Of a stretch of 64,000 nucleotides of DNA, positions 40,674 to 59,464 are shown piece by piece (the stretch's first letter is position 1; each line of letters opens with the position of its first letter). A program made the position numbers and the translations under genes. The notes under the pieces were generated by a model that saw only the letters and a program-made list of their open reading frames with translations, was not told where the DNA came from and made no database searches. The DNA lies in NCBI GenBank assembly GCA_947573555.1, contig CANPFO010000002.1, positions 1,276 to 65,275 of the forward strand, in the 5' to 3' direction. This DNA comes from an uncultured Clostridium sp. (GTDB lineage Bacteria > Bacillota > Clostridia > TANB77 > CAG-508).

Positions 40674-43600
40674 ATGATGAGAGAAAAAGGAAGAAAAATT
40701 CAAATCAAAGTAATGTCTATAATTGGAACTTTGCTAGCAATATTATGCTTAATTGCATATGCAACTCAAAATATGAGTGTTAAAGTAGCTAGTGTGCCAA
40801 AAATAGAAGCTTATGAAAATGCAGATATTACATTAAAAGTTAGTCAAACACCTAATTTAGATGTTATTTTAACAAAGAGTAAAACAGCTATTGATGTAAC
40901 TACATTTGAAGCTAATTTAAAGAAAGAATTAGTTAAGCAAAATGTAATGACACAAGCTGAAATTGATAGTGGAAAACTTAAAATATCAGCTGTTTCAACA
41001 CAAAATGTAACATCTCAAAATAATTTTAGTTGGACAAGAGATGTTAAGCATACTGATGACAAAGATACTAACATAGGAAGTATAGATATAACTAATAATG
41101 GAAAAGACATATTAATGAAAGGAAACTTTAGGAATGCAGGAAAGAATGCTATTTGGATAATGCCTGAAAATGACACAGAGCAAGAATTTACTTTTAATTA
41201 TAATATAGATTTTGGTGATAGCTTTGCAGCAGCAGGTATGCTTTTAAGAGTACAAAGAGTTGGTAATTATATAGAAGGATATTTACTTTCATTTAACAAT
41301 CCTAACGATACTAATTCAACCAAAGGCGCATGGTACTGGGCAACAGGAGAAAAAGGTGAGAGAACAAAGGGTGCTTTATGGAAATTTAAATATAAGATAG
41401 GGGATAATTCAACTCCTTTTTCAGTAGGTTATGATACTACATTATTACAGAAATTAGATATAAATAAGAGTGGTACATTAAATATTAAAGTAAGTGATAC
41501 AGAAATAAAAATTATAGGAGGAGGAGTTAATACTACATATACATTCCCACAAGGAAGAAGTTATGGAACTGGATATGGATTCTTCTCAGCTCATTATAAA
41601 CATAGTTGTGAAAAGTATGGAGAATTTTCATTAAGAAACATAAATTTAAAAACTACATCAGTTAAAAAATTTACAGAAATATTACAAGCTCCAGACTGGA
41701 GAAATGGTTCTGCAAAAGTATTAGTAAATGTAGAAGATGGATTAAATCCTCAATTCTCAGATAAAGATGAATTAGCAGCAATAGTAGCGAAATTGATGAA
41801 CAATGATGTTTATTATATAGGATGGGGAACAAATACAAATCAATCACAAATAAATGATTTAATACAAAAGAATGATAATAAAGGTACATATATTGCAAAT
41901 TCTTCAAGCGAGGCAATACAAGCAACAGTAGACTATATAAAAACTTTATTAGGAGAAAATGTAACAAATAAAGTAATAGCAGGAGAACCTACAAGAGTAG
42001 AAATTACTACACCAGAAGGAGGAGTAGTAACACCAACTGATGAATTCCCAAGTGGAGTATGGAAAGTAATACATGATTATAACTATTATGAAAATCCACA
42101 GGGACAATATGAGAAAGATGGACTATATTCAAATGAATTAATAAGCTCATTCGATAATGTAGGTAAATATACTATTCTTTTTGAAGATAAATATGTAACA
42201 GACATATATGCACATAGAAGACCAGTATCATCATTTAGTTTAAAACTACGTGGTACAGATTTAAAATTAAATAGTACTTCTTATGATTTAGATATAGAAG
42301 TAGAGTCAGAAGAATATGATATACAAAAAGCAAATAATGGAATAAAAACTGAAAAATGGGAATACAAAAAAGTAAATGATGTAAATAATGAATGGACAGA
42401 AATACCAAGTGAAGGTGTAGGAAAAACAGCTACAGCTACATTAGAAGAAAATACAGATTATATAATAAAATTAACAGTAACAGATTATCAAGGAGTATCT
42501 ACAGAATCAACAAAATATGTAACAACAGAAAATAAAGAAACAACTCCAATAGCATCATTTAAAATTATAAACAAAACAATATCTAAATATGAAAAGTTAG
42601 AAATCATAGATGAATCTTATGACCCATCAGGAGCGGATTTAACTTATAGTTGGAAAGTAAAAAGACAAGGAGCATCAAGCTATGTGTATACAGGAAACAC
42701 ACCACTAACAAACTTTAATAGTTCATCATATGGAGAAGGAAAATACACAATAGAATTAACTGTTTCAAAAACATATAATGGAAAAACAATAACATCAGAA
42801 GTATTTTCACAAGATATAGAAATAACAAAAGATACAACAGCTCCAATAGTTATAATAAATCCAGTAACAAAATATGCATATAATGAAAATATAGATATAT
42901 CAGTTGATTTTAAAGATAATGAGAGTGGTTTAAAATCATATAAATATGTAATAAATAAAAATAATACACCAGCAGAAGAAAGTGAATATAAAGAAGTAAC
43001 TTTATCAGGAAAAGAAACAATTGAGACAATAACAATACCTTCAAATCAATGGGATGAAAATTTATATTTACATATAATAGCAGAAAACAATGAAGGTGTA
43101 AAAACAGAAGAAAGAATAGTTGGAAAATATTATATAGAACCAACATACGAAGTAATTGTTCAAGCAATAGATAATACAGATAGAAATATAGTACAAAATG
43201 CAACATATAATATTCAAGCTGAATATGCAGATGGATCAGTTGTAGATGTTGTTACAAATGCAGTAACAGACAGAAATGGTAAAATAACAATACCAAAGGC
43301 AAAATTACACAAAGCAATAGGGCTAAAAATTGATAATATAGCAGTACCAAATGGATATGATATTGCAGGATATAAAAATGTAGGAATAGATACAACAACT
43401 TATAGTGTTGTATTAGACAACTCAAGAACATCAGGAGATGTAAATGCCAATGTAAGTAATAATGGACAAACATTAACTGTAAAAGTACCTGTATCAAGAA
43501 AGCAATTTGAGCTTAAAATATCAAATGTAGATAGCTTTTTTGGAAATTATATATCTAATTCAGAATTTGTATTAAAACAAAATGGAACAGAAATGGCTAG

Positions 43601-58675: not shown

Positions 58676-59464
58676 ATGAAAACAAATTTTAGAACAAAAC
58701 TTACAAGTATGCTAGTAATCATAACAGTAGTACTTATGATGGCAACTATTGTATTTGCAGAAGGAACAAATTATACAGTAGGAATGTCATTAACAAGTAG
58801 TTCAAAATTAAAAGAAGGAGATACTGTTATAGTTAAAGTAAATTTAACAAATATTAATGCTGGGGATGGAATTGATACAATAACTGCAAAAATAGATTAT
58901 AATGAGGAAGTATTTGAAGCATTAACAACTCTAGATATGGTAGCAGGGTCAAATTGGATGCCATCATATTCAAATACATCAAAAATATTATCATTACAGA
59001 AGAGTTCAAAAGTAAAAACAGCAGAAACAGTATTAACAATAACATTAAGAGTAAAATCAACAATAAAAGTTGATTCAACAACAATAACATTAAAAGATAT
59101 AGTTGCATCAGGAGGAAGAATTGCTGATGGAGGTACAGGAGATATAACAGTTAATAATGTATCTACAATAATAAGCAAAGAAAAAACACAAGAGCCTGAA
59201 CAAAATGATACAAATACAGTTGGTGGACAAGATACAATAACTACACCAAATACACCTAACGCATCAAATAATTCAAATAAACCAAATACAACTGGAACAA
59301 ACAATATGTCTAATAAAACAGCAAAAGATAATACAATTACAAAAACAAATTCACTACCAAAGGCAGGAAGCAATATGTATGGATTAATAGTAATTGTTAT
59401 AATAGCAATAGTTGCAGTATTCAGTTATATATTATATAGAAGATTAAAAAAAGATGTAAAATAA
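58676..59464 (+). CDS. cohesin-like domain protein with LPKAG cell-wall sorting signal (anchor 2)
   Basis: AAAGGAGA RBS before ATG 58676. Signal/TM. ...LKEGDTVIVKVNLTNINAGDGIDTITAKIDYNEEVFEAL...VLTITLRVKSTIKVDSTTITLKDIVASGG.... T/N-rich linker. LPKAG (59354-59368) plus TM plus RRLKKDVK. Confidence 0.75.
   Translation: MKTNFRTKLTSMLVIITVVLMMATIVFAEGTNYTVGMSLTSSSKLKEGDTVIVKVNLTNINAGDGIDTITAKIDYNEEVFEALTTLDMVAGSNWMPSYSNTSKILSLQKSSKVKTAETVLTITLRVKSTIKVDSTTITLKDIVASGGRIADGGTGDITVNNVSTIISKEKTQEPEQNDTNTVGGQDTITTPNTPNASNNSNKPNTTGTNNMSNKTAKDNTITKTNSLPKAGSNMYGLIVIVIIAIVAVFSYILYRRLKKDVK

Follow-up and report, generated by a model that had tools for sequence, protein, structure and literature searches.

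A giant dockerin-bearing protein of an uncultured Clostridium encoded next to two putative sortase-anchored cohesin proteins: a probable enzyme-free system for surface display

A 64,000-nucleotide (nt) stretch of the genome of an uncultured Clostridium species (assembly GCA_947573555.1, contig CANPFO010000002.1, positions 1,276 to 65,275, forward strand; in the following "the window") contains the gene for a giant secreted surface protein that ends in a dockerin. It is followed by two genes for small proteins, anchor 1 and anchor 2, each of which contains one cohesin domain and a predicted sorting signal. We estimate, with a probability of about 0.7, that these genes encode an enzyme-free, non-cellulosomal cohesin-dockerin system that displays protein on the cell surface. 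The giant would be exported via its N-terminal signal sequence and would form a long fiber of about 28 SpaA/CnaB-type domains and eight X-modules, with a lectin-like head at its far end. Devoid of a covalent anchor, it would be held by the Ca2+-dependent binding of its X-module and dockerin (X-dockerin) to the cohesin of a small protein, which in turn would be joined to the peptidoglycan by sortase through an LPKAG motif. In this model anchor 1 is the cognate socket and anchor 2 an older resident anchor of the chromosomal slot, and the slot, located between the ComEA gene and a gene for an AMP-binding protein, would serve in this clade as a site for swappable cassettes of cargo plus anchor.

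Architecture of the Giant Protein

Scanning for open reading frames (ORFs) and translation located the gene for the giant at positions 40674..57350 of the plus strand, co-directional with the two small genes. The ORF is opened by a GTG at 40659, but translation likely starts at the ATG at 40674, which is preceded by a better ribosome-binding site, GAAAGGAAG; counted from this ATG, the protein has 5,558 amino acids (aa), and the stop codon occupies 57348-57350. The GC content of the region of the giant and the two anchors is about 27-29%, as in the remaining window. The gene triplet is unbroken in five independent metagenome assemblies, in which the giant has 5,566-5,568 aa, and therefore an assembly artifact was rejected as the origin of the ORF. 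In a sixth assembly with 3.6x coverage the gene was called as two pieces.

The signal sequence (40674..40763, plus strand) consists of a basic n-region, a hydrophobic core at aa 13-28, and the residues AYA, and its cleavage site is a predicted one. A scan of the whole protein revealed that aa 13-28 are the sole hydrophobic stretch of at least 16 residues. No sorting signal was found on the giant. The sole internal LPETG, at aa 2362, was considered as a hidden sorting signal and rejected, because neither a membrane helix nor a tail follows it.

From the N-terminus to the C-terminus, the signal peptide is followed by a lectin-like head, a small alpha/beta domain, about 28 SpaA/CnaB-like stalk domains, eight X-modules, three of which lie within the stalk region, and the dockerin. 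Judged from its domains, the protein is built like a fibrillar Gram-positive adhesin whose own wall anchor is replaced by a dockerin. The N-terminal 499 aa have just 19 database relatives, and a Pfam scan of this region, including the head, matched no family. An AlphaFold2 (AF2) model built with 16 homologs was mostly confident between about aa 60 and 430, with local dips, and the predicted local distance difference test (pLDDT) score was 77-94 in most 10-residue blocks of the head (about aa 100-330; 40971..41663, plus strand). A Foldseek comparison of this ConA- or L-type-lectin-like beta-sandwich with the PDB retrieved Emp46p, VIP36, PHA-L, CBM66 (template modeling (TM) score TMt 0.62-0.64), the A-domain of staphylococcal Aap, and lactococcal YwfG, i.e., L-type lectins and other sugar binders of the ConA-like type, with E about 1e-6. 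The N-terminal domain is thus predicted to have a lectin-like fold, at a modest quality of the match.

The presumed stalk (43194..55844, plus strand; Pfam SpaA) comprises 28 copies of the SpaA/CnaB-type, prealbumin-like domain at aa 841-5057, as determined with an iterative hidden Markov model (HMM) within the protein. Iterative profile searches further revealed a 72-aa module, the X-module, in eight copies. Five are arranged in tandem at aa 5102-5494 (55977..57155, plus strand), and the last of them immediately precedes the dockerin, so that both form an X-dockerin unit at 56940-57347. The other three, at aa 1699-1928 (45768..46457, plus strand; E 1e-36 to 1e-38 with the X-module HMM), sit in the middle of the protein, distant from the dockerin; therefore the X-module does not seem to be solely a dockerin partner.

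The last 61 aa (57165..57347, plus strand) form two near-symmetric repeats of a Ca-binding loop and a helix, DLDGNGRITATD and DLDFNGKVTVTD. They scored 38.0-40.9 bits with Dockerin_1 (PF00404), for which the cut-off is 22.9, and in a PDB sequence search they matched the dockerins 2ccl and 1ohz of Clostridium thermocellum Xyn10B (E 7e-6 and 2e-5). In the same search with the X-dockerin unit, the X-module matched no solved X-module. Pfam, ORF and HMM scans detected no cohesin in the giant.

The Two Anchor Proteins

Anchor 1 (57392..58219, plus strand; 275 aa) is composed of a signal peptide, a cohesin (57473-57886), an Asn-rich stalk, the motif LPKAG (58109-58123), a membrane helix, and a basic tail. 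Anchor 2 (58676..59464, plus strand; 262 aa) has the same order of elements, with the cohesin at about 58775-59185, a stalk rich in Thr and Asn, and LPKAG at 59354-59368. An AAAGGAG site is present upstream of both genes. With the Pfam family Cohesin (PF00963; cut-off 24.1 bits), anchor 1 scored 32.2 and anchor 2 scored 36.7 bits. The two proteins are 38% identical, and 44% within the cohesin domain. A PDB sequence search with both anchors yielded no cohesin match, only chance matches to tRNA synthetases. The AF2 model of anchor 1, calculated from 21 family members, had pLDDT values of 89-98 per 10-residue block at about aa 31-160, and the seven top Foldseek matches in the PDB were all cohesin entries, namely, 4ums, 2vo8 (TMt 0.79), three chains of 2jh2 (TMt 0.73-0.77), 2w1n, and 4fl4, with E-values of 2e-7 to 6e-5. 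Anchor 1 can therefore be confidently predicted to have the beta-sandwich fold of a cohesin.

The sorting signal of anchor 2 exceeds the cut-off of TIGR01167 LPXTG_anchor (17.6 versus 15.9 bits). In an alignment of 21 members of the anchor family, the motif is LPKTG, LPQTG, LPKAG, or IPKAG ([LI]P[KQ][TA]G) in 20 of them and IPNLG in one, and the helix and the basic tail after the motif are nearly universal. A third predicted sortase substrate is encoded in the window at 25954-27189 (plus strand); it has 411 aa, a SpaA domain, and IPKAG followed by a helix and a basic tail. Together with the LPKAG of both anchors, this looks like a local [LI]PKAG variant of the sorting motif.

The original prediction, which had been made from the DNA sequence alone, had ascribed to the giant an N-terminal signal, no sorting signal or C-terminal anchor, and a C-terminal dockerin, and to both small proteins the same succession of signal peptide, cohesin-like domain, stalk, LPKAG, helix, and basic tail. 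All of this agrees with the scans, the HMM scores and the matches to solved dockerins described above, and in the case of anchor 1 also with the modeled fold.

The X-Dockerin Unit as a Cargo Tag

A word-indexed homolog search with the X-dockerin retrieved one protein only, and an exhaustive HMMER search was required. When phmmer was used to compare the 136-aa X-dockerin unit with 1.84 billion representatives, 2,883 matches reached E<=1e-3, and 277 representative clusters passed the stricter limit of E<=1e-10. Among the 150 best matches, most were end to end and located at the very C-terminus of proteins that were 300-5,162 aa long. By this distribution, the unit is a cargo tag in wide use and ends hundreds of protein families.

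To define the cargo, 84 X-dockerin proteins were scanned with Pfam in two sets, for each of which 25 families were listed. Dockerin_1 scored in 79 of the 84 proteins. The most frequent partner domains were Flg_new (51), RCC1 (14), SpaA (10), DUF285 (8), and the BspA-type leucine-rich repeat (LRR) family LRR_5 (6), followed by cohesin and Big_2 (5 each), Cna_B (4), and the S8 and C1 peptidases (2 each); MucBP and Mucin_bdg had one match each. No catalytic family of glycoside hydrolases was among the families listed for these proteins. Thus, as far as domain assignments can tell, the sampled cargo is almost entirely of the repeat or adhesin type and not enzymatic.

Related Loci and Their Chromosomal Slot

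The anchor family is small and comprises 53 clusters. Species-representative genomes were scanned with the 10 closer members of the family; the alignment of 21 members contained no stretch that was conserved enough. Eleven loci were found, which are labeled as uncultured Clostridia or Clostridium with the exception of one bin named "Treponema sp.", and they were read by ORF, regular expression and HMM scanning, with confirmation by Pfam. In L004/L005, L009, L010, L011, L014, L015, and L023, a sortase-type single-cohesin gene is immediately preceded by a gene whose product ends in a dockerin, and in L012 a cohesin-dockerin adaptor and an X-module protein precede the anchor. According to a profile search, an X-module homologous to that of the giant precedes the dockerin in every related cargo protein. 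Judged by gene order, the pairing of cargo and anchor is conserved in at least eight related loci of uncultured Clostridia, mostly in the same chromosomal slot.

The order of this slot is LytR, PBP5, ComEA, cargo, anchor, in some cases a Na/Ca exchanger, and the AMP-binding gene. It is complete in L009 and L012 and partial in L004, L010, L014, and L015. The AMP-binding gene is 80-87% identical across the loci. The cargo, in contrast, is very different from locus to locus and includes Flg_new arrays of 2,290 and 1,844 aa, SpaA/Flg_new proteins, and cohesin-X-dockerin adaptors of 315-323 aa. The closest relative is L004, where an ortholog of the giant that shares its X-dockerin subtype precedes a lone anchor of the cohesin 1 type. 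The original prediction had also proposed that plug and socket are encoded in cis, and the conserved adjacency of the two genes speaks for this proposal. It had further noted the absence of glycoside hydrolases and scaffoldins nearby, and in agreement with this, the ORFs scanned in the window and the related loci examined yielded neither a glycoside hydrolase nor a multi-cohesin scaffoldin.

Two loci contain additional components. In L010 (2-4213) and L014 (3-4693), a SpaA/Flg_new protein with a divergent dockerin, which has a longer spacer between its repeats, is followed by a cohesin-X-dockerin adaptor of 315-323 aa, and the dockerin of the adaptor resembles that of the main cargo. These gene sets suggest a small hierarchy, in which the cargo would bind the adaptor and the adaptor the wall anchor. 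The family member in the "Treponema sp." bin (L013, JAZQNJ010000080.1) has the motif LPQTG and lies on a 7-kb contig, which is probably mis-binned Clostridia.

Specificity of the Anchors and Alternative Explanations

The related loci fall into two groups. In group A, which consists of the window giant and L004, the X-module is short, the dockerin ends the protein, and the adjacent anchor is of the cohesin 1 type. In group B (L009-L015 and L023) the X-module is longer, the dockerin has a C-terminal tail, and the adjacent anchor is of the cohesin 2 type. Cohesin 2 is 52-67% identical to the cohesin domains of the group B anchors, and with the same flanking synteny it is the positional ortholog of the lone anchor in these loci. 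The similarity profile of the window dockerin follows the profile of cohesin 1 (r = +0.83) and runs counter to that of cohesin 2 (r = -0.59), a co-variation that comes from seven non-independent loci and is in effect a contrast of two groups. The intergenic regions are different as well. Only 41 nt separate the stop codon of the giant from anchor 1, without a terminator within them, and therefore the two genes are probably co-transcribed. Between cohesin 1 and cohesin 2 there are a GC-rich hairpin right after anchor 1 (58224..58248), which is a possible terminator, although its T-run is on the minus-strand side, a palindromic repeat element of about 330 bp, and a promoter-like site, TTGACA-18-TATACT, at 58613-58642 ahead of anchor 2.

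The two sockets are thus probably not equivalent, and the dockerin of the giant most likely has its cognate socket in anchor 1. Several X-dockerin proteins are encoded per genome in this clade (L010, L014, L022), and therefore anchor 2 probably serves X-dockerin proteins of the second subtype that are encoded elsewhere in the genome, beyond the window. The simplest history would be that a group A cassette, consisting of the giant and anchor 1, is now located in a slot that kept its group B anchor. The original prediction had instead envisaged two alternative sockets for one adhesin. That both cohesins bind the dockerin equally, with redundancy or a higher display capacity as a result, is compatible with the presence of two intact cohesins with sorting signals beside the giant, with the near symmetry of the two dockerin repeats, with loop residues and several helix positions that are common to the dockerins of groups A and B, and with L010 and L014, where one anchor apparently serves at least two dockerins. 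Nevertheless, we regard equal binding as rather unlikely: cohesin 2 shares only 44% of its residues with cohesin 1 and clusters with anchors that accompany the different, tailed dockerin subtype, it is set apart by the hairpin, the inserted repeat element and its own promoter-like site, and L004 contains the ortholog of the giant together with a cohesin 1-type anchor only.

A more far-reaching alternative is that adjacency does not reflect interaction, i.e., the anchors hold other dockerins and the dockerin of the giant binds another partner, or a cohesin of another cell or species. X-dockerin proteins are numerous and some have no cohesin gene nearby, as in L022, and to our knowledge many non-cellulosomal dockerins have no known partner. 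Yet the order of cargo and anchor recurs in at least eight loci whose cargo differs widely, dockerin subtype and neighboring cohesin co-vary, and only 41 nt lie between the giant and anchor 1, which makes this explanation improbable. Still less credible is a fragment of a degradative, cellulosome-like complex, in which scaffoldins that carry enzymes and are encoded elsewhere would attach to the anchors, with the giant as a structural scaffold. Sortase-anchored single cohesins fulfill such a role in Ruminococcus flavefaciens, Ruminococcus bromii, and Limousia (PMC2930009, PMC4611034, PMC12997984), and small cohesin-dockerin adaptors exist in the related loci. However, the giant itself has no cohesin, the scanned window ORFs and the related loci examined contain neither a glycoside hydrolase nor a multi-cohesin scaffoldin, and the families listed for the 84 X-dockerin proteins include no catalytic family of glycoside hydrolases, with peptidase domains in only four of the proteins.

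Several observations weigh against the enzyme-free display system favored here or against parts of it. The match of the head to lectin folds is of modest quality (TM 0.4-0.64). Anchor 1 stays below the cut-off of TIGR01167, both anchors have Ala in LPKAG where the canonical sorting motif has Thr, and the window ORFs scanned did not include a sortase gene. In L008 the anchor gene has no adjacent X-dockerin gene. Conversely, L022 (ERZ14231475 contig, 1-12083) encodes a SpaA-dockerin giant of 4,441 aa beside an M23 peptidase and an RCC1-Flg_new-X-dockerin protein, and no cohesin gene was called within about 6 kb on either side in this 12-kb stretch; genes for X-dockerin cargo thus also cluster apart from anchors. 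With respect to the assignment of the sockets, the non-independence of the seven loci has been mentioned, and the dockerins of groups A and B have many positions in common, so that cohesin 2 may cross-bind the giant.

Comparison With Known Cohesin-Dockerin Systems

The pair of CttA and ScaE of R. flavefaciens offers a parallel for the arrangement in the window; we take cttA to be located directly upstream of scaE. The cohesin of ScaE binds the X-dockerin of the scaffoldin ScaB as well as that of the cellulose-binding protein CttA (PMC2930009), and the joint between CttA and ScaE has been described as an "ultrastable" adhesion complex (PMC4266597). Both systems have a single-cohesin anchor with a C-terminal sortase signal, in the window a predicted one, that occurs together with X-dockerin cargo, and a non-enzymatic cargo protein that ends in an X-module and a dockerin, which in the case of CttA binds the substrate (PMC2930009, PMC4266597). 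The binding head of CttA is at the N-terminus (PMC2930009, PMC4266597), as is the putative one of the giant, and therefore the cohesin-dockerin pair would transmit the load between head and wall. Unlike in R. flavefaciens, the context of a sca cluster, a scaffoldin, a carbohydrate-binding module, and cellulases is absent from the sequence examined here. The cargo comprises about 5.6k aa and combines a lectin-like head with a SpaA-type stalk, its X-module has no sequence match to solved X-modules, the cohesins are nearest in fold to those of Clostridium perfringens and Pseudobacteroides cellulosolvens, the sorting motif is LPKAG, and there are two anchors of different lineages. Homology to the type III pair of R. 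flavefaciens was not detected, as neither the X-module nor the cohesins had sequence matches to it in the PDB, and ScaE was not among the seven cohesin fold matches of anchor 1 at E<=1e-3. By analogy, the system would work like CttA-ScaE, but it is not a member of this family at the sequence level.

Further anchors of this kind are Sca2 of the R. bromii amylosome, a single-cohesin protein with a sortase signal that also binds non-enzymatic dockerin proteins, e.g., with LRRs (PMC4611034), and cSca5 of the Limousia mucinolysome, which has the same layout and is predicted to hold scaffoldins and enzymes (PMC12997984). The use of a sortase-signal single-cohesin protein as a general surface anchor is common to these systems and, by prediction, to the window. 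However, they are built around glycoside hydrolases and multi-cohesin scaffoldins, whereas the cargo sampled here is almost entirely of the repeat or adhesin type. The toxin and glycosidase complexes of C. perfringens are likewise non-cellulosomal and occur in low-GC Clostridia, and their cohesins 2vo8 and 2jh2 are among the best fold matches; there, both cohesins and dockerins reside on glycoside hydrolases and link enzymes to one another (PMC12997984), in contrast to the predicted wall-anchored sockets of the window, which would be dedicated to an adhesin. The giant also resembles fibrillar LPXTG adhesins of the Aap/SasG type, in which immunoglobulin-like or CnaB-like domains in a long array carry an L-type-lectin-like head at the N-terminus, and the Aap A-domain (8deo) was matched by its head. 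These adhesins contain their own LPXTG for a covalent link to the wall, whereas here the fiber has the dockerin and the predicted sorting signal is on a separate small protein.

The original prediction had not recognized the arrangement as a described one. This novelty was overstated, because a sortase-anchored single cohesin that holds an X-dockerin adhesion protein is already represented by CttA-ScaE (PMC2930009, PMC4266597), and similar anchors in R. bromii (PMC4611034) and Limousia (PMC12997984) weaken it further. An anchoring mode of cellulosomes that is reused for an adhesin instead of enzymes would thus be a variant of a known mechanism. In the literature searched, the coverage of which was incomplete, we found neither a cohesin-dockerin locus described as free of enzymes and restricted to adhesins, nor a report on a giant dockerin protein of the SpaA type whose anchors are encoded in cis. 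The combination that characterizes a cellulosome, a multi-cohesin scaffoldin with dockerin-bearing carbohydrate-active enzymes, was found neither in the scanned window ORFs nor in the related loci.

If the predicted binding takes place, anchoring via cohesin and dockerin would be a general mount for adhesins of gut Firmicutes, beyond polysaccharide degradation, and adhesins could be exchanged or shared among sockets without the renewed evolution of a covalent anchor. With a 5.6k-aa fiber that pulls on a non-covalent joint, the system would lend itself to the study of mechanostable pairs of X-dockerin and cohesin, the two subtypes could give new orthogonal cohesin-dockerin pairs for the engineering of surface display, and hundreds of "hypothetical" X-dockerin repeat proteins could be annotated as surface-displayed cargo. 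We give slightly less than even odds to a wider reading. It holds that a clade of low-GC gut Clostridia uses this system in general for enzyme-free display, that a conserved chromosomal slot takes up exchangeable cassettes made of sortase-anchored sockets, small cohesin-X-dockerin adaptors, and X-dockerin cargo such as lectin-headed giants and Flg_new, RCC1 and LRR proteins, that at least two orthogonal specificities coexist in the genome studied here, and that the joint of the giant could be load-bearing and possibly ultrastable, like that of CttA and ScaE.

Neighboring Features of the Window

The palindromic repeat between the two anchor genes resembles a miniature inverted-repeat transposable element (MITE). 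It is located at 58255-58584, has 81-nt arms that are 98% complementary as well as nested inverted repeats, and was found in all six of six assemblies of the source species. A second copy of about 165 bp (60544-60707) lies between the genes for the Na/Ca exchanger and the AMP-binding protein, and a terminal inverted repeat of about 70 nt is common to both copies. A search of positions 57300-60900 with Rfam returned only sub-threshold matches to plant and animal microRNA precursors on the long hairpin repeat, which were not regarded as RNA genes.

The gene for the Na+/Ca2+ exchanger (59510-60514, plus strand) follows directly 3' of the docking genes. It has the same position in L004 and L015, whereas in L009, L010, L012, and L014 no exchanger gene separates the anchor from the AMP-binding gene. 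That the exchanger is tied to the calcium supply of the dockerin would be pure speculation.

At the other end of the window, about positions 1-14600 represent a probable mobile element that is integrated beside a tRNA-Arg gene (14488-14564). It encodes a tyrosine integrase (13084-14460), a D5-type primase (9463-10824), a resolvase (6606-7313), and a DUF6076 protein (7622-9124, minus strand). Just outside of the integrated element, a protein with Schlafen/AlbA_2 and HATPase_c_4 domains is encoded at 15365-16978 on the minus strand, which, by its domains, could be a defense or regulatory gene.

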